A stretch of DNA of 64,000 nt from a virus, in IMG/VR virus record IMGVR_UViG_3300010354_000065, positions 10,808-74,807 of that record; one strand, given 5' to 3'. The notes beneath the pieces were generated by a model. It made no database searches. It worked only from the letters and a program-made list of their open reading frames with translations, and had not been told where the DNA came from. Shown here piece by piece: positions 42,953-54,231 of the stretch. The position numbers and the translations under genes were made by a program. Each line of letters starts with the position of its first letter. The stretch's first letter is position 1.

Positions 42953-43419
42953 GCTGCCAGTACCTCTTTCAAACGATCAGCCGCATACGAAGCAGCAAAT
43001 GCGTTTGGTTTTACCATAGGAACAATATTACACGTTCCTTTAATGTAACCAATAGCTTGCTGCACAACGCAGCTAGAACCGTACCGTTCATCGGGGTTAA
43101 TGTCCAAATGTACCTCAACATGACGGTCCTCTAACACATCAATTAAGCTCTGAAATAACTCAGATACTTTGTACACTTCATTCATTAAACGGACTGCGGG
43201 TTTGTTCTTTTTTTGATCATAATCTGGCTCTCTTTGAACTTCACCGAATATTTTACAACCATGCCGACCATCCACGTGCACAACAACTGCAAGTGTATAA
43301 TCTGCATACCAATTACGACCTTCTTTGAAGCGAACAGAATCTGCCCCAATGTAAATCTTTGTAGATGGTGATTGTTTTCTAATGAATTCTTTTACTTCTT
43401 CAATGTTCATTTTTTGCAT
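42949..43419 (-). CDS. RNase H-like YkuK (DUF458) family protein
   Basis: IYIGADS, RLMNEV, EVHLDIN, KP.AFAASYAAD. Confidence 0.85.
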   Translation of the reverse strand: MQKMNIEEVKEFIRKQSPSTKIYIGADSVRFKEGRNWYADYTLAVVVHVDGRHGCKIFGEVQREPDYDQKKNKPAVRLMNEVYKVSELFQSLIDVLEDRHVEVHLDINPDERYGSSCVVQQAIGYIKGTCNIVPMVKPNAFAASYAADRLKEVLAA

Positions 43420-43433
43420 AAAGCACCTCGCCG

Positions 43434-43507
43434 TGGAGCGGGTGAAGGGAATCGAACCCTCGTCGTAAGCTTGGAAGGCTTCTGCTCTACCATTGAGCTA
43501 CACCCGC
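43434..43507 (-). tRNA. tRNA-Gly(UCC)
   Basis: cloverleaf, loop CT-TCC-AA, encoded CCA. Confidence 0.95.
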
Positions 43508-43510
43508 TTA

Positions 43511-43681
43511 TTAATTATAACCCAAAATAATATTATCCCCAATATCAGTATCCTCATCAACAAAACAATCTTCTGTTGAAAGTATATCACAGTATTCGTT
43601 TTTTCCAATCCCCGTATTATCTTCAACTTCTTTTTTTTGTTTTATTGTTTTGGCAGCTGTAAAGCTTTGATTGAATTTCAC
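43511..43681 (-). CDS. small acidic hypothetical protein (56 aa, GTG start)
   Basis: GTG overlaps the upstream TGA; ...EYCDILSTEDCFVDEDTDIGDNIILGYN; below ORF-track cutoff. Confidence 0.5.
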   Translation of the reverse strand: MKFNQSFTAAKTIKQKKEVEDNTGIGKNEYCDILSTEDCFVDEDTDIGDNIILGYN

Positions 43682-44262
43682 ATGATTCCTTTTTGTTTGC
43701 TTATTGAAGAAAAATAATCTTCAAAAGAAAGATTTTCTTGAAATCTCAGTGATGCTATTGTTCTTTCTTTTGGTCCTGTTGACGCACGATGAAAGGAATC
43801 AACTTTAACAAAGTGTGGACGCTCAAAACAAAGACGATCAACAATAAAAGGACCTTTAACCCATTCAGGATGTGTATGACCATATCCAGGGTCGGGACGT
43901 TTTATTTCAATAACTTCCCCCTCAGCCCACTCCATAAAACAATCAACACAACCTTCAATGGGTATATTATACGCTGTGCTTTTTCCAAAAACCCTCCCAT
44001 CTTTCATACTATATAAATCTTTATGCCAGTTTTGTGTGAAAAAAGGAGGTCTTGTAAAAAGATGTAACGCAAACAATTGAGGAAGTTTGTAATATGACAG
44101 CTCATTATTAATTGTGGCACATACATCTGATGGTAAGTCTGAAGCAAATAATACGTTGGCTTGACGTTGTGGTGTTGGTGCAGCCTTTATTGATTCAAGC
44201 TTTTTTTTACAAAAAGCCTGCACAGCAGGAACAAATTCAAAATTAAACGAAAAATAATACAT
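43678..44262 (-). CDS. 2OG-Fe(II) oxygenase/cupin-like protein
   Basis: WHKD, AYNIPI, FHR, R..ASLRF pattern shared with other paralogs here. Confidence 0.6.
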   Translation of the reverse strand: MYYFSFNFEFVPAVQAFCKKKLESIKAAPTPQRQANVLFASDLPSDVCATINNELSYYKLPQLFALHLFTRPPFFTQNWHKDLYSMKDGRVFGKSTAYNIPIEGCVDCFMEWAEGEVIEIKRPDPGYGHTHPEWVKGPFIVDRLCFERPHFVKVDSFHRASTGPKERTIASLRFQENLSFEDYFSSISKQKGIM

Positions 44263-44370
44263 TTATTTTTGTAGTCTGGAAAGAACAAAATCAAACTTTT
44301 CTAACGATTTCAAAGCCAGTTGTTTTATTCTAGATTCAAAATTAAAATTGAAAGGAATACTATTTAACAT
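44263..44370 (-). pseudogene. 35-codon remnant resembling the N-terminus of the downstream oxygenase-like gene
   Basis: MLNSIPFNFNFESRIKQLALKSLEK versus MYYFSFNFEFVPAVQAFCKKKLES. Confidence 0.3.
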
Positions 44371-44408
44371 TTGGAAGCATGAAGTATGTTAGGTTACTGT
44401 TATATATC

Positions 44409-44483
44409 TGGCCCGGCCGGAGGGAATCGAACCCCCATTCGCGCTTTAGAAGAACGCTGTCCTATCCATTGAACGACGGCCAG
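44409..44483 (-). tRNA. tRNA-Arg(UCU)
   Basis: cloverleaf, loop CT-TCT-AA, CCA. Confidence 0.92.
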
Positions 44484-44487
44484 AAAA

Positions 44488-44578
44488 TGGTGCCCGGAGC
44501 CGGGATCGAACCGGCACGCCGCTTTCGCTAAACGAGAGATTTTAAGTCTCTTGTGTCTACCTATTTCACCACCCGGGC
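44488..44578 (-). tRNA. tRNA-Leu(UAA)
   Basis: AGAGA-CT-TAA-AA-TCTCT, long variable arm, CCA. Confidence 0.95.
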
Positions 44579-44583
44579 TATAC

Positions 44584-44674
44584 TGGTACCTCTGGCGAGA
44601 TTCGAACTCACATCAGCCGCTTATCTGGCGCTACGGGGTATAAATCCGCTGTTTTACCATTAAACTACAGAGGT
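44584..44674 (-). tRNA. atypical tRNA with UAU (Ile) anticodon and long variable arm
   Basis: acceptor ACCTCTG/CAGAGGT-A-CCA, loop TT-TAT-AC, 21-nt variable region. Confidence 0.8.
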
Positions 44675-45201
44675 TTTGAAACATCAAACACTAATGTTAT
44701 TCTATCTTCGTTATTTAAATTTTGTGTACCGTGCATTTTTTGCGTGTTAAAACAAAATAACGTTCCTGGTGTAATATCGCGACTACTATCCCCTACAAAA
44801 TATCGATATCTTCCTTTTATACACAAATGATACCGCTCTATTGTATGAAAATATTTTCCAGGATCTTTATGTAACGGAACCTTTTGTAATGGTTGCAGTT
44901 TAAGAAAAAAAGATCTTTGCAGGTTTACTGTGTTTTGATGTAACCAATCTAATGTTGAGGGAAATAATCCTTGAGAAAGATCTTCAACTTCTGTACTATT
45001 AAAAAAATTATCCGCTGACCTATTGGTGGTGTCAACATCACCAGGCCCAAAAAGTCTTAAGGTTTCTGTTTTTCGAAAAGCGTACAACAAATCCCCATAG
45101 TGTCTCCACAAATGAGAAGCTCGAGGGTGGACTACTTCATTTAAAATACATGATACATCGATGTTGGTTTTTTTTATTTCTATTTCAAAAGAGGGGTCCA
45201 T
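44665..45201 (-). CDS. aspartyl/asparaginyl beta-hydroxylase family oxygenase
   Basis: VPLHKD.G.YF...ERYHL, HGTQN...DRITLVFD. Confidence 0.85.
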   Translation of the reverse strand: MDPSFEIEIKKTNIDVSCILNEVVHPRASHLWRHYGDLLYAFRKTETLRLFGPGDVDTTNRSADNFFNSTEVEDLSQGLFPSTLDWLHQNTVNLQRSFFLKLQPLQKVPLHKDPGKYFHTIERYHLCIKGRYRYFVGDSSRDITPGTLFCFNTQKMHGTQNLNNEDRITLVFDVSKPL

Positions 45202-46028
45202 GTGTCTATAACTTCCTTCTTTAATTTTTGGTTGCCAGTTGCATTACACGTGTCGCACGGGACGCCACCCTTTGTTCTATTATGAAACATTAGCTTTTTA
45301 CGAATACTATTCATCTCTTCAGAAAGCCACAGCTTGTGAAAAGGTGTCGTGTTTACATTACCAAACTTTCCTGCTGCCCTTGCCCAATCATTACAACATA
45401 ACAGTAAACTACCGTCCCAGTCAACGAAAGCTTTTGTATGGGGGAGAAAGCACGGCTTATTTAAAACGTCTTGAGGAATCCCATCTGTTTTAACCGTACC
45501 AGCTCTATTTGTAAAAATTTGTATTGGAAAAGTGTACTTGGCGGAAAGGTGAATTGGTATACGATCCACAAAAGGCGCGACTTTACGCTTCCATTGTTTG
45601 TATTGCTCTTCACTATCATACACATCTACAAAGATACTAGTTACTCCTGCATCGATGAAATCCTCAATGGTGTACCAATCATCATCAAGAATCTTATCTC
45701 CATTGGTATAAATTTGTATATCGCGGATTTTACCTTTTGCGACTTTTATATGCTCAAGAATATTTTTGTTGAGTGTTGGTTCTCCCATACCAGAAAAAAC
45801 TATTCTACCTTTGTAGTTATTTTTGTACAAATCCTCTACAAGAGCAGTAATAGTATCCAGAGACATATGTAAGTTTTGATTAGGATAAATTTCTGGATCA
45901 ACACGTGGACAAAACGCACAAGTTCTATTGCATAGCTCTGTTGGATTTACTTCAACCACGGTCAGACCAATAAGAGGATCTGTTGGTTCAAAGTGTTCGA
46001 GGGTACGTATTTTATGCATTTCTTTCAT
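45180..46028 (-). CDS. radical SAM protein with SPASM/twitch domain
   Basis: CNRTCAFC, GMGEP, TNG, NRAG, PC..P, CCND, C..C. Confidence 0.92.
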   Translation of the reverse strand: MKEMHKIRTLEHFEPTDPLIGLTVVEVNPTELCNRTCAFCPRVDPEIYPNQNLHMSLDTITALVEDLYKNNYKGRIVFSGMGEPTLNKNILEHIKVAKGKIRDIQIYTNGDKILDDDWYTIEDFIDAGVTSIFVDVYDSEEQYKQWKRKVAPFVDRIPIHLSAKYTFPIQIFTNRAGTVKTDGIPQDVLNKPCFLPHTKAFVDWDGSLLLCCNDWARAAGKFGNVNTTPFHKLWLSEEMNSIRKKLMFHNRTKGGVPCDTCNATGNQKLKKEVIDTWTPLLK

Positions 46029-46043
46029 ATGTTCACTCTTTTA

Positions 46044-46135
46044 TGGCAGTGAGAGTGGGATTCGAACCCACGGTCCCGATTTCTCGAGACGACGGTTTAG
46101 CAAACCGTTGATTTAAGCCACTCATCCATCTCACT
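46044..46135 (-). tRNA. tRNA-Ser(GCU)
   Basis: ACGGT-TT-GCT-AA-ACCGT, long arm, CCA. Confidence 0.95.
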
Positions 46136-46142
46136 TTTTATT

Positions 46143-46232
46143 TGGTGGAAGCGGTGAGATTCGAACTCACGGACCCTTTCGGATCGTCTGTTTTCAAGAC
46201 AGGTGCAATAAACCGGACTCTGCCACACTTCC
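46143..46232 (-). tRNA. tRNA-Ser(UGA)
   Basis: loop CT-TGA-AA, long arm, CCA (A73). Confidence 0.93.
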
Positions 46233-46239
46233 ATTTTTT

Positions 46240-46314
46240 TGGCATCCCGCGAGGGATTCGAACCCCCACCCACGGTTTTGGAGACCGTCATGCTGCCGTT
46301 AACACCAGCGAGAT
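46240..46314 (-). tRNA. tRNA-Trp(CCA)
   Basis: ACGGT-CT-CCA-AA-ACCGT. Confidence 0.93.
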
Positions 46315-46326
46315 GTGTTGTATGTA

Positions 46327-46401
46327 TGGTGCATCGTGAGAGGATTGAACTCCCGACCTTCGCCTTGTAAGGGCGCAGCTCTACCGCTGAGCTAACGATG
46401 C
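46327..46401 (-). tRNA. tRNA-Val(UAC)
   Basis: loop CT-TAC-AA, CCA. Confidence 0.95.
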
Positions 46402-46417
46402 ATATATATTTTCATTT

Positions 46418-46969
46418 ATGAAACACGAATATTCTGAAGTTATTGATTTTCAATACGATCGCAATCTTCTTTACAAGACTGTAAAAGAGATAGTCGAAGA
46501 AAACAACCTTTTTAACAAGGCTGTTCCAATTTCTGCATTTAAAAATTTACAGAAGATTAAAATATTATCAGCTCTTAATCTTAAATTCAGAGATACCCTT
46601 TTTGACATATACATGAATAGTGTAACTGTTGCCTGTTTACAACCCAAACAAAGATCCGCTATACACGTTGATAGAGATGTTGACAACACATTTACAACGA
46701 AGGCATTGAATGTACCTGTTACAGAATGTAGCAATGTTGTAATGAACTGGTATAAGGTAAAACCAGGTGGTGTTATCAAAACTATTAGGTCTGCTCGTGG
46801 GTGGGAAATACCTGGTCTTTCTTTAGATCAGAGCGTAATAATACACTCACAAACAGCTAACAAACCTTTTTTGGTGAATCCTTCTACATTTCACGACATA
46901 ATTAATAATGGAGACAAACCAGAATTAATTATTAGTATTCGAACAGGAAACGAAAATTGGAGCGGGTAG
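46418..46969 (+). CDS. 2OG-Fe(II) oxygenase/cupin-like protein, antisense to the tRNA array
   Basis: IHVD, ALNVPV, FHDI.N, ISIR. Confidence 0.65.
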   Translation: MKHEYSEVIDFQYDRNLLYKTVKEIVEENNLFNKAVPISAFKNLQKIKILSALNLKFRDTLFDIYMNSVTVACLQPKQRSAIHVDRDVDNTFTTKALNVPVTECSNVVMNWYKVKPGGVIKTIRSARGWEIPGLSLDQSVIIHSQTANKPFLVNPSTFHDIINNGDKPELIISIRTGNENWSG

Positions 46970-47035
46970 TGGGATTCGAACCCATCACTTCGAGTTTGGA
47001 AGACTAGCGTGCTAACCGTTAAACACTATACCCGC
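46958..47035 (-). tRNA. tRNA-Gly(UCC), second copy
   Basis: loop CT-TCC-AA, U73-CCA. Confidence 0.9.
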
Positions 47036-47038
47036 AGA

Positions 47039-47112
47039 TGGTAGGGGCACCGAGAATCGAACTCGGGTTTGCTGGTTAAAAGCCAGCTACTTTACCACTA
47101 AGTTATGCCCCC
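47039..47112 (-). tRNA. tRNA-Lys(UUU)
   Basis: GCTGG-CT-TTT-AA-CCAGC. Confidence 0.95.
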
Positions 47113-47117
47113 GAAAA

Positions 47118-47191
47118 TGGTACCGGATACTGGTAACGATCCAGTGTCGCACGATTATCAGTCGTGTGCTCTACCTTTGAGCTAATCCGGT
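47118..47191 (-). tRNA. tRNA-Ile(GAU)
   Basis: CACGA-CT-GAT-AA-TCGTG; T-loop ATCGTTA. Confidence 0.92.
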
Positions 47192-47193
47192 AT

Positions 47194-47267
47194 TGGCAGA
47201 GGGTATTGGAATCGAACCAATAATAACGGAATCAAAATCCGTGGTTATACCATTTAACTAACCCCCA
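47194..47267 (-). tRNA. tRNA-Gln(UUG)
   Basis: ACGGA-TT-TTG-AT-TCCGT. Confidence 0.93.
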
Positions 47268-47276
47268 ACAAAACTA

Positions 47277-47352
47277 TGGTACCGCCTTCTGGGATCGAAC
47301 CAGATTCCACGGTTCTTCAGACCGTTGCTATGACCACATCAGCTAAAGCGGC
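47277..47352 (-). tRNA. tRNA-Phe(GAA)
   Basis: ACGGT-CT-GAA-GA-ACCGT. Confidence 0.93.
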
Positions 47353-47362
47353 TTATGATAAT

Positions 47363-47438
47363 TGGGCAGGAGAACGGGAGTTGAACCCTGTCTTACTGTT
47401 TCACAGACAGTCGTGCGCACCGGTACACTATTCCCTGC
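47363..47438 (-). tRNA. tRNA-His(GUG)
   Basis: ACTGT-CT-GTG-AA-ACAGT, G-1/C73; imperfect T-stem. Confidence 0.85.
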
Positions 47439-47444
47439 ACTGTA

Positions 47445-47520
47445 TGGAACCACCTGAGAGAGTCGAACTCCCGCCTCTTCGTTCGTAGCGAAGTGTTCTG
47501 ATCCATTGAACTAAGGTGGT
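47445..47520 (-). tRNA. tRNA-Arg(ACG)
   Basis: CTTCG-CT-ACG-AA-CGAAG. Confidence 0.95.
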
Positions 47521-47524
47521 GGAT

Positions 47525-47601
47525 TGGTGCCCAAGGAGGGATTCGAACCCACACTGTATGGCTTCTAAGACCATTGCCTCTACCAATTGCGCTACTTGGG
47601 C
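47525..47601 (-). tRNA. tRNA-Leu(UAG) with short variable loop
   Basis: ATGGT-CT-TAG-AA-GCCAT, variable region ACAGT only. Confidence 0.9.
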
Positions 47602-47616
47602 TTGCTATATACTTTT

Positions 47617-48150
47617 ATGCACAATCGCCAAACTTTTATACACACACAACGACTTGAGCAAGCAACCGCGAATATTAAAGATGACTTCTTTAGAATATAC
47701 GGCGGTGTTGATAAGCTCAAAATTATAAAGTCACCCAAGCAAGACAAAGGAGTCTCCGCTGAGTGGGTTGGATCATTTGCATACTTTCAAAAACGTAATC
47801 CTCAATGGGACCCTCTTTGTCAGTTTCGCTCACGTTTTCTCAAACCTTTTGTTGAGTCTTTTCCTCAAAACCACCTATTTGGTATATGGTTCAGTGCTAT
47901 ATTACCAGGTGGAGTTATACAGTGGCACACTGACAAATATGACGAGGGGGAAGACTATATCAGAGTACACTTGCCTCTCATTGTACCACAAGGCGACATA
48001 GGTATCACTGTAGAAGAGACAACATATAAATGGGACGAAGGTAAAGTGTTTTGTTTTGATCCTTTTGTAATGCATACCGCATGGAATAAAACAAACAACC
48101 TTCGTCTAAACTTAAATTTTAATTTTTCCAAAAAAGCTTTTATTTGTTGA
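47617..48150 (+). CDS. aspartyl/asparaginyl beta-hydroxylase family oxygenase, antisense to the tRNA array
   Basis: FS.I.PG..I.WHTD, RVHLPL.VP, W.EGK..FD...HTAWN....R; ATG at 47617. Confidence 0.88.
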   Translation: MHNRQTFIHTQRLEQATANIKDDFFRIYGGVDKLKIIKSPKQDKGVSAEWVGSFAYFQKRNPQWDPLCQFRSRFLKPFVESFPQNHLFGIWFSAILPGGVIQWHTDKYDEGEDYIRVHLPLIVPQGDIGITVEETTYKWDEGKVFCFDPFVMHTAWNKTNNLRLNLNFNFSKKAFIC

Positions 48151-48318
48151 AAGCACTCCAGTCTGTTTAAGGATCCGGTGATCCCCTCTTATCTTTGCTA
48201 TACGCTCAAAAGCCCTAGTGCCACCACAGCACATCGAGGGACTCGATAGAGGTCGGTATTACCTTTGGAGTCAGGCAGCTGGTTAGGCTTTTTGCTCACA
48301 GGCTTTCAACAAATAAAA
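48138..48318 (-). ncRNA. structured RNA element A in the tRNA array
   Basis: perfect 17-bp terminal inverted repeat TTTTATTTGTTGAAAGC/GCTTTCAACAAATAAAA enclosing several helices (ACTCCA/TGGAGT, ATCGAG/CTCGAT, AAAAGCC/GGCTTTT). Confidence 0.65.
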
Positions 48319-48320
48319 CA

Positions 48321-48398
<78 letters not shown>

Positions 48399-48403
48399 AA
48401 TAG

Positions 48404-48604
48404 GATTTGCAAGTAGTGCCACCACGTTATTGGCACCATTCACCCGATTATACTAGTCCGGACGGGAGTCGGTAAGTCACTTGAAATACTCAACACAGTG
48501 TCCCTTATTTTTTGCTAGGGATTCGCGCCCCCCACTGCTTTACTCTATTTGGCTCTTCGAAGTAACCTTATAGAGTGTCTTTCTCCTGCTGACACTTGCA
48601 AAAC
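48404..48604 (-). ncRNA. structured RNA element B in the tRNA array
   Basis: closing helix TTTGCAAGT/ACTTGCAAA; internal GTGTC/GACAC, ACTCTAT/ATAGAGT, GTGCCA/TGGCAC, TCCCT/AGGGA. Confidence 0.6.
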
Positions 48605-48605
48605 T

Positions 48606-48682
48606 TGGCTGGCCTGGTAGGGATCGAACCCACGACATCTTGATTAACAGTCAAGCGCAACTACCAACTGTGCTACAGGCCA
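48606..48682 (-). tRNA. tRNA-Asn(GUU)
   Basis: CTTGA-CT-GTT-AA-TCAAG. Confidence 0.95.
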
Positions 48683-48693
48683 ATATTCAACAT

Positions 48694-48767
48694 TGGTGCC
48701 CCCACCATGAATCGAACAAGGAATTGATGCTTACAAGGCAACTGTTATACCATTTAACTATAGGGGC
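48694..48767 (-). tRNA. tRNA-Thr(UGU)
   Basis: loop CT-TGT-AA, CCA. Confidence 0.9.
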
Positions 48768-48785
48768 AAATCTTTTCTACTTATT

Positions 48786-48861
48786 TGGTCTCCGACACTG
48801 GACTCGAACCAGCACCTTCTGCACCCCAAATGCAGTGGACTACCTATTATCCCAATCGGAG
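48786..48861 (-). tRNA. tRNA-Pro(UGG)
   Basis: CTGCA-TT-TGG-GG-TGCAG. Confidence 0.93.
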
Positions 48862-48865
48862 GTAT

Positions 48866-48939
48866 TGGTAGCAGGTCGGGGTAACGCTCCCCGCTCGGAT
48901 GGGCTTATGAGACCCACCGGATCACTTGATCTACCTGCA
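48866..48939 (-). tRNA. atypical tRNA-Met(CAU), initiator-like
   Basis: 1:72 mismatch, GGG/CCC in the anticodon stem, very short D-arm, T-loop AGCGTTA. Confidence 0.75.
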
Positions 48940-48946
48940 ATTGTTT

Positions 48947-49021
48947 TGGTGGACCGCTGGAGAATCGAACTCCAACCTCCGCCGTGCAAAGGCGGCGTGC
49001 TCCCATTATCACTAGCAGCCC
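48947..49021 (-). tRNA. tRNA-Ala(UGC)
   Basis: CCGCC-TT-TGC-AC-GGCGG, G3:U70. Confidence 0.95.
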
Positions 49022-49024
49022 TTT

Positions 49025-49099
49025 TGGCGGTTTCAAGGGGTAACGATCCCCTTCTTCATGCGTGACAGGCATGCGTGCGTCCATGAACACTTTGAAACC
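49025..49099 (-). tRNA. tRNA-Asp(GUC)
   Basis: CATGC-CT-GTC-AC-GCATG; T-loop ATCGTTA. Confidence 0.92.
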
Positions 49100-49176
49100 T
49101 TATAGAAGCACATTACTGTTAACCTTGCCTCAACTCTTGTGTTAAGGATCCAAAGGATAATGTGCTTTTATAAGGT
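49097..49176. ncRNA. structured element C (long hairpin)
   Basis: 19-bp inverted repeat ACCTTATAGAAGCACATTA/TAATGTGCTTTTATAAGGT with one non-Watson-Crick pair around a 42-nt loop. Confidence 0.55.
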
Positions 49177-49350
49177 GTAGGCTACGTTTCCACATCGCCC
49201 CTACTTGAGTTGACACCCTGTCGTCACCTTTGCTTCTTCGGCTGTGTGAATCATCCTAGCAGTTCCTAAGTTGTTTAGACTTGCTAACGGTGTACTGCCA
49301 CCGGGAATCTACGTTTATCCATCGCCTCTGTCACGCCGAGGAAGCGGGAT
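49176..49350. ncRNA. structured element D
   Basis: GCTTCTTCGGC/GCCGAGGAAGC helix, CGGTG/CACCG, TAGCA/TGCTA, GTAGG/CCTAC; duplicated motif GGCGATG-N3-AAACGTAG on the minus strand. Confidence 0.55.
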
Positions 49351-49352
49351 TA

Positions 49353-49445
49353 TGGTGGAGGTCCACGGATTCGAACCGCGAATGTTTACCACGAGGGACC
49401 GGATTTACAGTCCAGTGCAGCACACGCCATAGCTGCAAGACCTCC
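49353..49445 (-). tRNA. tRNA-Tyr(GUA)
   Basis: CTGGA-CT-GTA-AA-TCCGG, long arm, extended D-stem GCAGC/GCTGC. Confidence 0.9.
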
Positions 49446-49452
49446 TAAAAAC

Positions 49453-49530
49453 TGGAGTACCGGGTCAGATTCGAACTGACGGTTGTAGAGTTTTGCAGAC
49501 TCTTGCATTGGGCCACTCTGCCACCGATAC
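49453..49530 (-). tRNA. tRNA-Cys(GCA)
   Basis: AGAGT-CT-GCA-AA-ACTCT, U73. Confidence 0.95.
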
Positions 49531-49533
49531 ATT

Positions 49534-49688
49534 TACCATTTGTTTAATGCTATCGCGCCAATTTGTCAACAAAGTAGCTAACTCTGACAAGCGAATAGCG
49601 GTTGTATCAGGACCTGTTCCTCGCACAGTTAGGCCCGCATAGTCTATGCGTCCATAGACGATACCCTGATAGCATTAAACAAATGGTA
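49534..49688 (-). ncRNA. structured RNA element E
   Basis: perfect 21-bp terminal inverted repeat TACCATTTGTTTAATGCTATC/GATAGCATTAAACAAATGGTA; internal GTATC/GATAC, GTCTATG/CATAGAC, GGGCC/GGTCC, TTGTCA/TGACAA. Confidence 0.7.
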
Positions 49689-49759
49689 CACCTAGGGAGA
49701 ATCGAACTCCTCGTTTCCGCCTTGAAAGGGCAGCGTCCTAGCCGTTAGACGATAGGTGC
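49684..49759 (-). tRNA. tRNA-Glu(UUC), first gene of the array
   Basis: CTGCC-CT-TTC-AA-GGCGG, CCA. Confidence 0.95.
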
Positions 49760-49823
49760 ACGTAACCATCTACAAATTGTAAAAGAGCAAAGTAGTCAAT
49801 GTTGTTAACTACTCAATATGAAC

Positions 49824-49852
49824 ATTATATGACAAAACAAACATCTTGTCAA
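49824..49852 (-). promoter_or_regulatory. consensus sigma70 promoter TTGACA-17-TATAAT upstream of the tRNA array
   Basis: exact consensus hexamers, 17-nt spacer. Confidence 0.85.
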
Positions 49853-49877
49853 CAGTCCATTTTTGGTTAAATAACCA

Positions 49878-49914
49878 CAAACAAAAAACCCCGGTTTCTT
49901 TCGATTCCGGGGTT
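49878..49914 (-). terminator. intrinsic terminator (attenuator terminator hairpin)
   Basis: AACCCCGG-AATCGAAAGAAA-CCGGGGTT followed by TTTTGTTTG. Confidence 0.85.
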
Positions 49915-49954
49915 CCTGGTTTGTAGATACTTGTGCTACAGCTTCAGGTTCCCC
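49909..49954 (-). promoter_or_regulatory. candidate antiterminator hairpin
   Basis: GGGG-AA-CCTG-AAGC-TGTAG..CTACA-AAC-CAGG-AA-CCCC; its 3' arm uses the terminator 5' arm and its 5' arm spans the leader stop codon. Confidence 0.7.
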
Positions 49955-50051
49955 TCACTCCAATCCATGTATTATAGGCGCATGGGCGAGCGACGGTCAA
50001 CAGACCGGGCTGCTTGCGCTCAATAAACGATGATATGTGAAGGTGAACCAT
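49944..50051 (-). CDS. candidate attenuator leader peptide MVHLHISSFIERKQPGLLTVARPCAYNTWIGVRGT
   Basis: GAGG SD 6 nt before the ATG; 35 codons, 19 amino-acid types; stop lies inside the antiterminator 5' arm. Confidence 0.65.
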   Translation of the reverse strand: MVHLHISSFIERKQPGLLTVARPCAYNTWIGVRGT

Positions 50052-50086
50052 TTTTTTCCTCATAGTACTACTATATATGTCTTCTT

Positions 50087-50647
50087 TTAGTCGACAATAC
50101 AATCCTCAAAAATTTTTTTTGCCTTGTCCCACTGTAGCCTTTGTTTGGTTTCTAAGTCACCGAGCACCACGCACGCAACGTATCTCGGATACTTACTGTT
50201 ATGGACAGCATGAATCCTACCAACGTTAACAAGGCTTGGTGTACCAATAGATGCTGAGTAGGCGTGAATAAGATCTTCTCGTGGTGCGTAAGAATATTGT
50301 GTGTTAATAACTGTTGTGTTTGTTTTAAGAGTGGCACCTGGCCGTAGCTCGTACCAATCCATTGTGCTATTTTCACCACCTCTCATCCAGTTGAGTTTTA
50401 CAACATCGTTAATTTCCGGACTATCTGAATGAGGCTCTAAAGTCCGGCCTGGTGGAGTGTAGAAGTACTCACCAGCAATAACAAACAAGCTTCTTAGACT
50501 CAACCATCCTTTAAATTCATCATCCATATCTGCTTTGTGAAAGCGAGTATGGTAGTGCAGCTGCGTATTGGGAACCGGATATTCAGGAAATGTAAATGAT
50601 ACCGGTATTTTCAGATGATGGTGATACTTGTTTATAAAAGAGGCCAT
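50087..50647 (-). CDS. 2OG-Fe(II) oxygenase/cupin-like protein
   Basis: YTPPG...PHSD, KLNW, LVNVG.IHAV.N...R; ATG at 50647 preferred. Confidence 0.65.
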   Translation of the reverse strand: MASFINKYHHHLKIPVSFTFPEYPVPNTQLHYHTRFHKADMDDEFKGWLSLRSLFVIAGEYFYTPPGRTLEPHSDSPEINDVVKLNWMRGGENSTMDWYELRPGATLKTNTTVINTQYSYAPREDLIHAYSASIGTPSLVNVGRIHAVHNSKYPRYVACVVLGDLETKQRLQWDKAKKIFEDCIVD

Positions 50648-51261
50648 TTGACTATTGAACGATGAAGGTCGATCAAGAACACGAGACGTCGGTACGATGA
50701 GTTGTTCCACGCACTATGTTCACATTGATTGTCAAAAGCAAACACGTTGTCCCAATGAATAAAGATTGTCCGCTCAATTTCAAATGTGATATCCCCTTCA
50801 GGTACTATTAGAGGGATATGACATCTCACGTACTGTTTACGTCGATTTTCAATTCCAGTATGACGACCTATACGACTATGAGCTTCCATAATGCTATATG
50901 TCGCGATCGGACAAGCAATCTGTCCACCTTCAACTCCATCTGGATAAAGATTGTCAAAATGATCAACAAGCTTCCAGGCAGCAGGATATTTGTCTCGGTT
51001 CGTAGCCGATTTGGTATTAACACCAGGATCCGTATACCGTAACCCCTCAACTTTCCATGCATCACCTGCAGCTGCATTACCAGCTGTCTTCCACTGACCA
51101 ACGGTTTTCATTTTATATTTTGGATCAAGCTCGCGTTCTTCAGGTGTTGGTTGTTTGTCACTAAAATTAGGAAAAATTTTCAAAAAATCCGCCGTCATTC
51201 CTTCACGAAAAGTATTGAAAAAATCAGTGAATATGAATTCGTCTGCTAGTTGATACTTCAT
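50632..51261 (-). CDS. aspartyl/asparaginyl beta-hydroxylase family oxygenase
   Basis: YS.M...S.I.RHTG.EN, RCHIPL.VP.G, FDN...HSAWN....RLVFLID; ATG at 51261. Confidence 0.88.
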   Translation of the reverse strand: MKYQLADEFIFTDFFNTFREGMTADFLKIFPNFSDKQPTPEERELDPKYKMKTVGQWKTAGNAAAGDAWKVEGLRYTDPGVNTKSATNRDKYPAAWKLVDHFDNLYPDGVEGGQIACPIATYSIMEAHSRIGRHTGIENRRKQYVRCHIPLIVPEGDITFEIERTIFIHWDNVFAFDNQCEHSAWNNSSYRRLVFLIDLHRSIVKWPLL

Positions 51262-51778
51262 GTCGATCTCTCGCTTGTCTATAAAATATATGATTACCAA
51301 TTTGTGTAGTTCTATACAGCCGCCACTTTGGATTTATAGCCACACTGTGAAAGTATGTAGCTCCTTTTGTAACATCATCAATTAGCTCATGGTAAAGTAA
51401 GACTAAAATAGAGAAGTCCACAATATCATGATACAACTGCGTGTGTTTGATAGCGTTCCGTCGCTTCGTAATAGAAGGATCACACAACCAGCTGAATTGG
51501 CATACGCCGTTTTGCTTTTGATGAACAACATTACATATTGTACTTGGGAATTTGTACGACAAGACCCTGTTGATAGTCACAAAAGCAACTGCTAACTTAC
51601 CATTTACTGACTCAGAAGCCGCCTCGAAGTAAATATTTTCAGCAAGACACGTTACTTGTCGTTGTGATTCTTTACTTAACTCATGAAAACTCGGTGAGAG
51701 TGGCAAGTTTGAAGGAATTGCCGCGGCTGCTGAGAGTATAAATGTTGAAAGCAGAAATCCTGTCAGGATAGCTCTCAT
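51224..51778 (-). CDS. cell wall hydrolase, SleB (Hydrolase_2) family
   Basis: signal peptide, CLAENIYFEA, AVA.VT.NRV, CQFSW, GATYFH, IGNHIFY. Confidence 0.92.
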   Translation of the reverse strand: MRAILTGFLLSTFILSAAAAIPSNLPLSPSFHELSKESQRQVTCLAENIYFEAASESVNGKLAVAFVTINRVLSYKFPSTICNVVHQKQNGVCQFSWLCDPSITKRRNAIKHTQLYHDIVDFSILVLLYHELIDDVTKGATYFHSVAINPKWRLYRTTQIGNHIFYRQARDRHEVSTSRRIHIH

Positions 51779-51795
51779 TTATCTCTCCTTTTAAA

Positions 51796-52096
51796 GAGGT
51801 GGGTTATTCTGTTACGAGGAAACCCACCGAAACCCTAAGCCGTGTTTAGGCGGCTAATGCGAAACGTTCATCGTTTGCGTTTACTTAATTTACTTTTAAC
51901 GACTCTCTGTGTCGGATCGTCCATATTTCTACTCTTTGCCCTGTCGAAACCAGGTCAGGCCCATCAAAAGCATACACAATTCCTCACCTTGTAGGAGTCT
52001 CATATTTCAGAGCCGATCCCTGTATGCTTTTGGTGGACCTGGGCGGAATCGAACCGCCGTCCAGAACACCTTTCGATCTACTTCATACGATCGTAA
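51796..52096 (-). ncRNA. ssrA: circularly permuted two-piece tmRNA; tag (A)ANDERFALAA
   Basis: acceptor piece ...GGCGGTTCGATTCCGCC-CAGGTCC-A-CCA (CCA at 52033-52031) precedes the coding piece GGGCCTGA.. (G1 at 51962), G3:U70 pair; tag ORF 51878-51846; outer ends approximate. Confidence 0.92.
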
Positions 52097-52098
52097 AA

Positions 52099-52473
52099 CT
52101 ACTTATCTACCTTCTGATGATACGGCACAGTCATTTTTCTTTCTGTGCTTGTCTTCATATGGCTATGTGCCTTCGCACTATTCCGGATTATATCATAAGA
52201 TACGTGATGAGTAAACCCATCTTTGTCTTCATGAGAAGACGCTGCCTGTACAGTATGTGTTTTATAATTGCCATACGACTTTGTATGAATCCGGTAATGT
52301 AGATTACCACTACCTCCATGCGCAAGGTCATGGTTTGTAATAATGCCATGCTCTTTACTCTGCTTGATGTGTTTCACAGCTGTCTTTGGAATATGCTTTG
52401 CAAGCTCATGACCAGACATCCACTCGGATGTAGTCTTGTTTTCTTCCGTAATAAACTCTGTAAAAGTTAACAT
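52099..52473 (-). CDS. probable internal head (virion) protein
   Basis: N-terminus MLTFTEFITEE resembles the T4 internal-protein capsid-targeting/protease-cleavage leader; TAAATA upstream; His/Lys rich. Confidence 0.5.
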   Translation of the reverse strand: MLTFTEFITEENKTTSEWMSGHELAKHIPKTAVKHIKQSKEHGIITNHDLAHGGSGNLHYRIHTKSYGNYKTHTVQAASSHEDKDGFTHHVSYDIIRNSAKAHSHMKTSTERKMTVPYHQKVDK

Positions 52474-52496
52474 GCAGCGTCCTTTGTTTGTAATAT

Positions 52497-53282
52497 TTAT
52501 TTAACAAAGAATTTTTGCACAATCCATCCACAAAAATCCCATTCACCGGGTTTGTTTGCATACGCAAAATTATACTCATACGGACGAGCGTGGTGATTAT
52601 TATGTAGACCTTCACCTAAAGTCAACGCATTCCAAAGTTTATTGTTGATACTGTCATCTTTGGTATCAAAATTCTTGTATCCCCACATATGACCTAAGCT
52701 AAGTTGCGTTCCTGCAACAAATTGAACATACCCACATGGAATGACGTAGCAGAACAAAAACAAGTAAGGGTCAATAATAAGCAAGAGCACACAATACAAT
52801 GCAATAGTTGGCCAATACCAATTATGAAAAAACGTGACCGGCTTTTTGGCAAGAAGATCACGAATATGTTTGGTCTGTATTGCCTTTGTTTTTTCTTGAT
52901 CAACAAAACTAAAAAACGATCGCCAAAAACCTAGCTGCTTAGGACAGTGTGGATCAAGATCGGTATCGCTGTGAGCGTGGTGATAGCGATGGAGAGCAGA
53001 ATAGTGTATCGCTGTATGTGTTGTTCCCAACGTAGCAAGCAGCGCCATCAACCACTCACGTTTCGATCCAGTCTGAAAACTACGATGACTGAAGTACCGA
53101 TGTTGTCCAATTGAGTGTCCTACCTTAGAAATCAGCAACACTGCCACTACGGTTACGAGCACGTACCAAAAACTTACATTAACTGCAAGCATATACAACG
53201 CGACAGGCAACATTAAAAGATTCGTTGCCTGTACAAACTTTAACAGCTCGTAGCTGTGCCAGCCTTTTATTTTTTTAAGCAT
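52497..53282 (-). CDS. fatty acid desaturase (delta-9-like, membrane di-iron)
   Basis: His boxes HRYFSH, HRYHH, HNNHH; DPH.P; TM helices. Confidence 0.92.
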   Translation of the reverse strand: MLKKIKGWHSYELLKFVQATNLLMLPVALYMLAVNVSFWYVLVTVVAVLLISKVGHSIGQHRYFSHRSFQTGSKREWLMALLATLGTTHTAIHYSALHRYHHAHSDTDLDPHCPKQLGFWRSFFSFVDQEKTKAIQTKHIRDLLAKKPVTFFHNWYWPTIALYCVLLLIIDPYLFLFCYVIPCGYVQFVAGTQLSLGHMWGYKNFDTKDDSINNKLWNALTLGEGLHNNHHARPYEYNFAYANKPGEWDFCGWIVQKFFVK

Positions 53283-54231
53283 CGAGAACCCTTATTACAG
53301 ACAAGACATTTTTGCCTCCAAACCCCATATTGAACTTTATGAACTGATCCTTAACAAAGGGAACATCGTTCTTGATGATTCTTTCATCATCAACAATAGG
53401 GTCTACCAGTTTTTCGTTAGCAGGAGCTAATCCGTTACGGACACTATCTAGTGCTCCTCCAAGCTCGAGTAAGTACGAACTAGCAAGAGCATGACCATAA
53501 CGACCTTTTAGGGAAGATATGGGAATATCCATTCCAAAAGAATCAAACAACTTAAACTCGGCCGCATCACCTAAAGGAGTACCAGGGGAGTGTGCATTCC
53601 ACCAACCAATTGAAGGCATGTGGACACCGTGGAACATCTCTTTTATTTCGTCCAAAGACCCAATTGCTGTCTTCTCGTTGGGCTGTGTCATAAACCTCAT
53701 CGTTTGAACACACGCGACAGGATTTTTTGGTCTAGCAGACACAACAAAAAACGCCTGTGCCTTGCTCGGTCTAAATCCTTTGCTGTTTTTATCGAACGGA
53801 ATTCCTGTCTCTGGTGACACGGCACCTAGTGAATTGAACCAATGCATGTCAACAGGAGAGAAAAGATCAGCGCACGCAACAATTGCCGGCGTACCCATTG
53901 TCTCGCTCATAAGACCAGCTTGGTACAAACCGTAAGCTGAGGATGTACATGCTGACAGAACGGAGAATGTAGCCCCACGTAATCCAAGTATACGAGCGAT
54001 TTCCGCATGTACAGACTCCAATCCGCCAGAAAGACACAAAGACGGCTTAGAACGCTTTTTACCCGCTTTATAATCATCCATCATCGCTTCGTGGCCAGCG
54101 AAGTTGGCACGAGAAGAGGAGACCAAAACAGCAGGCCAGTCCGGCTGGTAATCAATACCAGGCCGGAACTGACCAAAGAACAGCCCGAGATCGAAATTGT
54201 TTTCGTACTTGTACTGTTCGATATAGATCAT
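53275..54231 (-). CDS. beta-ketoacyl synthase (FabB/FabF-like), compact
   Basis: SACTSS, AHSPGT..GD..E, SSLKG.YGH, GFGG.N: intact Cys-His-His triad. Confidence 0.85.
   Translation of the reverse strand: MIYIEQYKYENNFDLGLFFGQFRPGIDYQPDWPAVLVSSSRANFAGHEAMMDDYKAGKKRSKPSLCLSGGLESVHAEIARILGLRGATFSVLSACTSSAYGLYQAGLMSETMGTPAIVACADLFSPVDMHWFNSLGAVSPETGIPFDKNSKGFRPSKAQAFFVVSARPKNPVACVQTMRFMTQPNEKTAIGSLDEIKEMFHGVHMPSIGWWNAHSPGTPLGDAAEFKLFDSFGMDIPISSLKGRYGHALASSYLLELGGALDSVRNGLAPANEKLVDPIVDDERIIKNDVPFVKDQFIKFNMGFGGKNVLSVIRVLDA

Follow-up and report, generated by a model that had tools for sequence, protein, structure and literature searches.

The closest described counterparts of the element reported here, a leader lying directly ahead of an array of 25 tRNA genes on the minus strand of a freshwater phage, are the enterobacterial leader attenuators (trpL, hisL, leuL, pheL), which combine a short open reading frame (ORF), mutually exclusive 1:2, 2:3 and 3:4 pairings of the RNA, a stop codon at segment 2 and a 3:4 pairing that is an intrinsic terminator. 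The phage DNA comes from IMG/VR virus record IMGVR_UViG_3300010354_000065, and the whole stretch analysed, hereafter the window, is a 64,000-nucleotide (nt) fragment of this viral contig (its positions 10,808 to 74,807), on which all positions are counted unless a locus is named. The phage element resembles the enterobacterial leaders in these parts, its 2:3 pairing being a candidate, and differs from the trpL type in that its ORF shows no run of a single codon and holds 19–20 amino acids, that the whole ORF forms the 1:2 pairing, that the genes downstream encode tRNAs and not biosynthetic enzymes, that it resides in a phage and that a promoter stands between the terminator and the genes. Multivalent attenuators, such as those of ilvGMEDA (Ile/Leu/Val) and thr (Thr/Ile), likewise let one leader report on more than one amino acid, but theirs are two or three related amino acids, repeated in clusters, whereas the phage leader has a complete or almost complete alphabet in a changing order. 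T-box riboswitches are also sensors of tRNA supply that switch between terminator and antiterminator upstream of translation-related genes; in contrast to the phage element, they bind directly to a single specific uncharged tRNA and involve neither ribosome nor ORF, and an Rfam 15 cmscan over 43000–53000 (E up to 5) gave no match within 49876–50066, T-box included. In the ermCL and cat leaders, the ABC-F attenuators and toiL of topAI a stalled leader ribosome remodels the RNA and general decoding trouble is sensed; unlike the phage element, they are triggered by drug-bound ribosomes at particular peptide motifs, and we know of no report that a leader of this kind needs coverage of all amino acids or controls tRNA genes. 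Two further systems resemble the element, with no sequence similarity found to either: the species 1 and 2 RNAs of the T4 tRNA cluster, small structured RNAs beside phage tRNA genes for which we know of no conserved ORF, and the Sinorhizobium rnTrpL/peTrpL attenuator, whose terminated product acts alone and which differs in sensing only Trp.

In its geometry the phage element matches the enterobacterial attenuators, and it departs from them in its complete amino acid alphabet, the lack of a codon run, the tRNA targets and the intervening promoter; full-text literature searches brought up neither an account of such a leader nor one of phage tRNA genes under attenuation. We lean towards reading it as a ribosome-operated attenuator of the trp type, with a leader that would sample nearly the whole pool of aminoacyl-tRNAs on behalf of the tRNA array.

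Loci for comparison, from metagenomes and viral sequences, were reached through homologues of the 207-amino-acid (aa) protein encoded next to the element, and DNA patterns of the conserved parts added loci L034, L037 and L057. The element-bearing loci form five lineages: the window with L004 (99% identical to it), L005 (about 78% identical to the window), L009/L010/L012, L057 and L034/L037. All five have one common order of parts, namely promoter P1, leader ORF, long hairpin, small hairpin, terminator, promoter P2, a 22-nt motif and tRNA-Glu (Table 1), and tRNA-Glu follows in every lineage having the element. The -10 box of P1 reads TATAnT in every lineage, preceded at 16–18 nt by a -35 box TTGTCx or TTGACA except in L005, where the -35 is weak; an A-rich 5' leader of 12–25 nt is present in all of them. 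P2 is conserved throughout, and TCTTTTACAATTTGTAGATGGT, the 22-nt motif, is nearly invariant. In L037 the element sits after a transfer-messenger RNA (tmRNA) gene, not a protein gene, with its own promoter P1 retained.

The leader ORF of the window had been described in the earlier note as a minus-strand frame of 35 codons behind a GAGG, with 30 different codons and 19 kinds of amino acids, Asp being absent, and all of these properties were recovered. That note had also expected relatives to keep a short ORF of high amino acid diversity and low peptide conservation, which is what they do, with 19–20 kinds each. The ATG-to-stop frame is open in all five lineages at a length of 34 or 35 codons, compared with 3 of the 30 other frame-by-lineage combinations that are stop-free and a stop-free rate of 0.18–0.24 in a structure-preserving null. 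All four indels within the ORF are of 3 nt, whereas indels elsewhere measure anything from 1 to about 20 nt, with no consistent multiple of three. The peptides of the two deep clades are about 25% identical. Nucleotide differences are distributed over the three codon positions as 5/5/5 (window vs L005) and 9/9/12 (L009 vs L034), and the changed codons are non-synonymous in 9 of 10 and 11 of 19 cases, respectively. Invariant residues are few (M1, Q-P, A, W and the C-terminal RGT). The frame is kept while the peptide sequence drifts, barely constrained.

What is maintained instead is the set of amino acids. All 20 are present in the ORFs of L005, L009/L010/L012, L057 and L034/L037, and 19 in those of the window and L004, mostly used once or twice each, with 29–31 distinct codons across the lineages. 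The counts of 19, 20, 20, 20, 20 and 20 kinds per ORF compare with 13–18 kinds in the other five frames of the same RNAs. For 34–35 uniformly drawn codons the mean is 15.6–15.8 kinds and the probability of all 20 is 0.0014–0.0019; this probability becomes 0.0014–0.0022 when the base composition of the region itself is used and 0.0018–0.0027 (mean 15.8 kinds) when the hairpin is kept. In six-frame translation of the window, 36,087 stretches of 34 residues are free of stops, and 14 of them reach 20 kinds. Taken alone, the window ORF is only mildly unusual, 19 kinds being found in 3 of 151 short ATG ORFs; the signal becomes strong through the relatives, which served as an out-of-sample test of the idea in the earlier note and agreed with it. 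Shared ancestry was controlled for by randomly refilling only those positions that differ between lineages, and the resulting probabilities were 0.002 (window to L009), 0.012 (L009 to L005), 0.013 (window to L005) and 0.04 (L009 to L034). Between L009 and L034, His and Asp have each disappeared from one position and reappeared elsewhere in the peptide. DNA-verified lineages need no more than the first 29 codons to reach their full coverage, which leaves at least five before the stop, and the last three codons, the invariant RGT inside segment 2, add no further kinds; completeness of the amino acid set is therefore under selection in that part of the ORF where a stall would leave the switch arm free. 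To our knowledge, this is the first attenuator in which selection would act on how complete an amino acid set is, and neither on a codon run nor on the sequence of a peptide.

The RNA of this region is strongly structured. A stretch of 231 nt folds far better than its shuffles (z = -5.3) with the ORF pairing with itself, its first codons to its last four in the window; this self-hairpin (1:2) and the conserved P1 directly upstream had both escaped the first reading of the sequence. The long ORF-closing hairpin is found in all lineages at -31 to -44 kcal/mol. The 2:3 pairing, a candidate antiterminator in which GGGG/CCCC and CCT/AGG enclose the small hairpin (-15 to -20 kcal/mol), has the stop codon on its arm and is in every lineage the fold of lowest energy when this segment is taken in isolation; in the window it corresponds to the alternative hairpin (GGGG/CCCC, CCTG/CAGG and TGTAG/CTACA) described in the earlier note, and its fold energy there is -15.7 kcal/mol. 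The 3:4 pairing is a GC-rich stem followed by a T-run in all lineages (-18 to -23 kcal/mol). The terminator proposed for the window is likewise present, with stem, T-run and an energy of -18.2 kcal/mol; a simple scan misses it because its 12-nt loop exceeds the 8 nt allowed in the scan. Both alternatives, terminator and antiterminator, fold in every lineage. Their relative energies resemble those of the textbook trp leader, which we take to be about -12 (2:3) and -20 kcal/mol (3:4).

The second expectation for relatives, a stop codon fixed on the GGGGAACCT arm, was borne out as well, the stop being embedded in GGGGAACCT(G/A)A in every lineage. GGGGAACCT is invariant in seven sequences, whereas its partner in segment 1 changes completely, which fits a constraint imposed by a second partner. 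A single substitution, A to G in L057, is seen in the core of segment 3 that pairs; it lies in the internal loop of 2:3 and is compensated in segment 4. In L034 and L037 a small hairpin of different sequence sits between segments 2 and 3. Ten compensatory pairs were detected with RNAalifold, mostly in the stem closing the ORF, which is one of the covarying hairpins that had been anticipated.

Table 1. Parts of the leader element, the start of the tRNA array and neighbouring features in the window
Feature	Position	Strand	Remarks
Promoter P1	50070–50097	-	TTGTCG-16-TATAGT; overlaps the stop codon of the upstream 207-aa gene; predicted start near 50063
A-rich 5' leader, 12 nt	50052–50063	-	GAGG at 50061–50058, six nt before ATG
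Leader ORF	49944–50051	-	ATG, 35 codons plus TGA
Segment 1, GGTTCACCTTCAC	50037–50049	-	5' arm of the stem closing the ORF hairpin
Segment 2, GTGAGGGGAACCTG	49945–49958	-	last four codons and two stop bases; partner is segment 1 or segment 3
Small hairpin TGTAG/CTACA	49922–49940	-	between segments 2 and 3
Segment 3, CAGGAACCCCGG	49907–49918	-	3' arm of the antiterminator and 5' arm of the terminator
Segment 4, CCGGGGTT and T-run	49883–49894	-	pairs with segment 3 as intrinsic terminator (49914–49883)
Terminator stem, AACCCCGG/CCGGGGTT	49914–49907/49894–49887	-	12-nt loop; T-run to 49883
Promoter P2	49824–49852	-	TTGACA-17-TATAAT; between terminator and tRNA-Glu
Conserved 22-nt motif, TCTTTTACAATTTGTAGATGGT	49765–49786	-	in the 5' leader of tRNA-Glu
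tRNA-Glu(UUC)	49684–49759	-	first gene of the 25-tRNA array (43434–49759)
Spacer, tRNA-Glu to tRNA-Cys	49531–49683	-	153 nt; nested inverted repeats inside
tRNA-Ile (ARAGORN)	44584–44674	-	anticodon TAT; 91 nt, long for tRNA-Ile
Asp/Asn beta-hydroxylase match (PF05118)	47587–48150	+	opposite strand, inside the tRNA array
Asp/Asn beta-hydroxylase match (PF05118)	50632–51300	-	
207-aa gene	50087–50710	-	adjoins the element; no Pfam match
SleB-type cell-wall hydrolase (PF07486)	51224–51778	-	
tmRNA gene	51792–52143	-	circularly permuted, two-piece; RF01850, 138.8 bits; tag ANDERFALAA
Fatty-acid desaturase (PF00487)	52497–53282	-	
Beta-ketoacyl-synthase-like gene (PF00109/PF02801)	53275–54231	-	

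For the element as a switch we infer that the ORF is translated, that translation is coupled to the choice between the folds, that readthrough results and that the phage benefits. P1 would start a transcript of ~185 nt. In RNA that is not translated, segment 1 would pair with segment 2, the 3:4 terminator would form and transcription would end. A ribosome proceeding smoothly to the stop would cover segment 2, that is the last four codons, and the terminator would again form. If a ribosome, or a queue of them, were held within the first ~29 codons by a missing charged tRNA, segment 1 would be masked and segment 2 left free to pair with segment 3; no terminator would then form and RNA polymerase would pass P2 and enter tRNA-Glu and the rest of the array, whose genes cover all 20 amino acids. 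Because the leader holds nearly every amino acid, a shortage of almost any charged tRNA would trigger the switch. P2 would provide the basal supply of tRNAs and readthrough from P1 an inducible supplement.

Several observations weigh against such an attenuator. The first concerns P2, the sole perfect TTGACA-17-TATAAT within the window, a conserved consensus promoter situated between the terminator and the tRNA genes; since it is strong, conserved and intervening, the array would be independent of readthrough, which could only supplement a basal supply. Three contigs from RNA or RNA-labelled libraries that extend over tRNA-Glu stop at 49805–49809, just downstream of P2, a weak hint that tRNA-Glu transcripts start at this promoter; the RNA evidence consists of contigs of four RNA or RNA-labelled runs, none of which covers the leader, and contigs cannot show absence. 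The Shine-Dalgarno sequence of the leader ORF is not conserved among the lineages: only the window and L034 show a clear match, that of L005 is distant and those of L009, L057 and L037 are weak or lacking; among the long ORFs of the window phage 26 of 56 have one, compared with a background of 13%. A stall in the middle of the ORF leaves segments 1 and 2 both free, and sensing at such codons assumes queued ribosomes. Both arms of the 2:3 pairing are invariant, so that no covariation supports the antiterminator.

Other observations bear on the sensing function itself. Coverage is not absolute, as the window and L004 leaders lack Asp, and two peptides from a protein library, known as protein and not as DNA, have 19 kinds with Val missing. 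Codon runs, by which the regulatory codons of classic attenuators are recognised, do not occur in the leader. The earlier note had supposed that the leader codons report specifically on host isoacceptors absent from the array; this was not supported, as matching of leader codons to array anticodons gave 74–88% readable codons vs a baseline of 75%. With readability at the baseline, the meter would count amino acids and not phage anticodons. An enrichment of Glu codons for the adjacent tRNA-Glu was also considered and dropped, each leader having just one or two. Finally, three close relatives (L003, L006 and L008, the latter equal to L002) lack both the element and a tRNA-Glu gene at this place, their 207-aa gene being followed directly by a promoter and tRNA-Cys; the element is thus an accessory module, since these relatives do without it. 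In the L002 record itself the element was not found, but this record is a 36%-complete fragment and does not establish absence from that phage.

A smaller yet appreciable probability goes to a free-standing mini-gene or small RNA, with the P1-to-terminator transcript as the product and a translated ORF that senses decoding for an output other than readthrough; this output might, for example, be a structural change exposing RNA for action in trans, or an altered stability, like in attenuator-derived small RNAs. That the unit brings its own promoter and a terminator that looks efficient in all lineages, and keeps both when the upstream neighbour changes, would suit such a gene, as would the strong structure of its RNA and the release of the array from the element through P2. 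There is also a precedent in Sinorhizobium, where an attenuator-derived small RNA and its leader peptide have functions in trans (PMC7968998). However, the element is always directly upstream of and co-directional with the tRNA-Glu module, and the switch arm overlaps the stop codon and the terminator arm exactly, as control by readthrough needs.

Improbable in our estimate is a structured non-coding small RNA gene of the tRNA/tmRNA region, similar to the stable RNAs of the T4 tRNA cluster, with an incidental frame. It would account for the conserved hairpin with compensatory changes and for the own promoter and terminator, and agrees with the Shine-Dalgarno sequence not being conserved, with substitutions that show no third-position bias and with gene callers that almost never call the ORF. 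It leaves unexplained, however, the open frame in five lineages, the 3-nt indels and the 19–20 kinds of amino acids, which a null preserving the structure does not reproduce (mean 15.8 kinds, P(20) = 0.002–0.003), and no Rfam family matches.

A real micro-protein of 34–35 residues, functional in a folded or bound form, is quite improbable. Its start, stop and length are conserved along with the few invariant residues, and the comparison of L009 with L034 has some synonymous excess (8 of 19). Against it stand the low identity of the deep clades and changes which are mostly non-synonymous and even over the codon positions; the invariant residues, moreover, coincide with the invariant RNA elements CAGCCCG and GGGGAACC, and the relocation of His and Asp without loss agrees with composition, not a fold, being selected. 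Very improbable, lastly, is an ordinary operon boundary, in which transcription of the upstream protein genes ends at the terminator, that of the tRNA operon begins at P2 and a chance ORF lies in the 3' untranslated region: the terminator-then-promoter order is conserved and in the element-free relatives the gene runs straight to the promoter, but the element of L037 follows a tmRNA gene and no protein operon, with P1 still there, and the conserved ORF properties and the hairpin would have no explanation.

Alternative signals within the leader were also considered. Both promoter-like sites listed in the earlier note were found; one of them is P2, and the other, TTGACC-18-TATAAT inside the ORF, is confined to the window and L005 clade, not conserved and, as a promoter, probably fortuitous. 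An in-frame ATG (50061–50063, minus strand) is located exactly at the predicted P1 start, with an equivalent in L005 (1352–1354) where a 6-nt insertion keeps the frame; a leaderless start at this ATG (50063) was rejected, being confined to the same clade. TTTGTAG within the TCTTTTACAATTTGTAGATGGT motif of the tRNA-Glu leader and CTACAAA in the small hairpin are complementary. L057 (10229–10400) has a second promoter-like site upstream of TCTTTTACAATTTGTAGATGGT and a GC-rich insert of ~150 nt between this motif and tRNA-Glu.

Wider searches for the element returned little. The GenBank phage collection gave a DNA match for tRNA-Glu only and no protein match for the 207-aa neighbour, and in the genome collection the 207-aa gene had no relative and a pattern match in a Dehalococcoidia metagenome-assembled genome (L033) was due to chance. 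With exact patterns of the terminator and of the segment-3 motif, scans of viral contigs produced zero matches; a gapped-pattern scan gave about 20 chance matches besides L034 and L037, the scan with the tRNA-Glu-leader motif that added L057 one chance match (L056), and a final scan with a three-block pattern nothing new. Within the window, neither a second copy of the element nor another short ORF with all 20 amino acids was found outside long genes.

The spacer between tRNA-Glu and tRNA-Cys is 75–92% conserved in L003, L005 and L010, though L003 is without tRNA-Glu, and its position is occupied by a different sequence in L009, L012, L034 and L057. The 207-aa gene has at least 31 homologues in metagenomes. 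The tmRNA is of the betaproteobacterial type, which suggests a betaproteobacterial host; relatives have the tags ANEERFALAA, ANDEKFALAA and ANEESFLMAA. The hydrolase, desaturase and beta-ketoacyl-synthase-like genes are reported upstream of the tmRNA gene, and lipid-metabolism genes are unusual in phage.

Phages with full tRNA sets may carry a general decoding meter, in which a stall at almost any codon, brought about by cleavage or degradation of host tRNAs or by starvation, would lead to antitermination and extra transcription of the phage's own tRNA genes; we regard this reading as about an even prospect. The natural variants could serve as controls, as the window leader without Asp and the L005 leader with Asp (V20D) have different predicted responses to depletion of Asp-tRNA. 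Why phages carry tRNA genes, and how these are controlled, has been debated for decades. Phage tRNAs have been tied to the escape from tRNA-cleaving defences (PMC10264068, PMC11555353, PMC11464382), and a leader polling the whole aminoacyl-tRNA pool would, if true, supply this idea with a regulatory mechanism.

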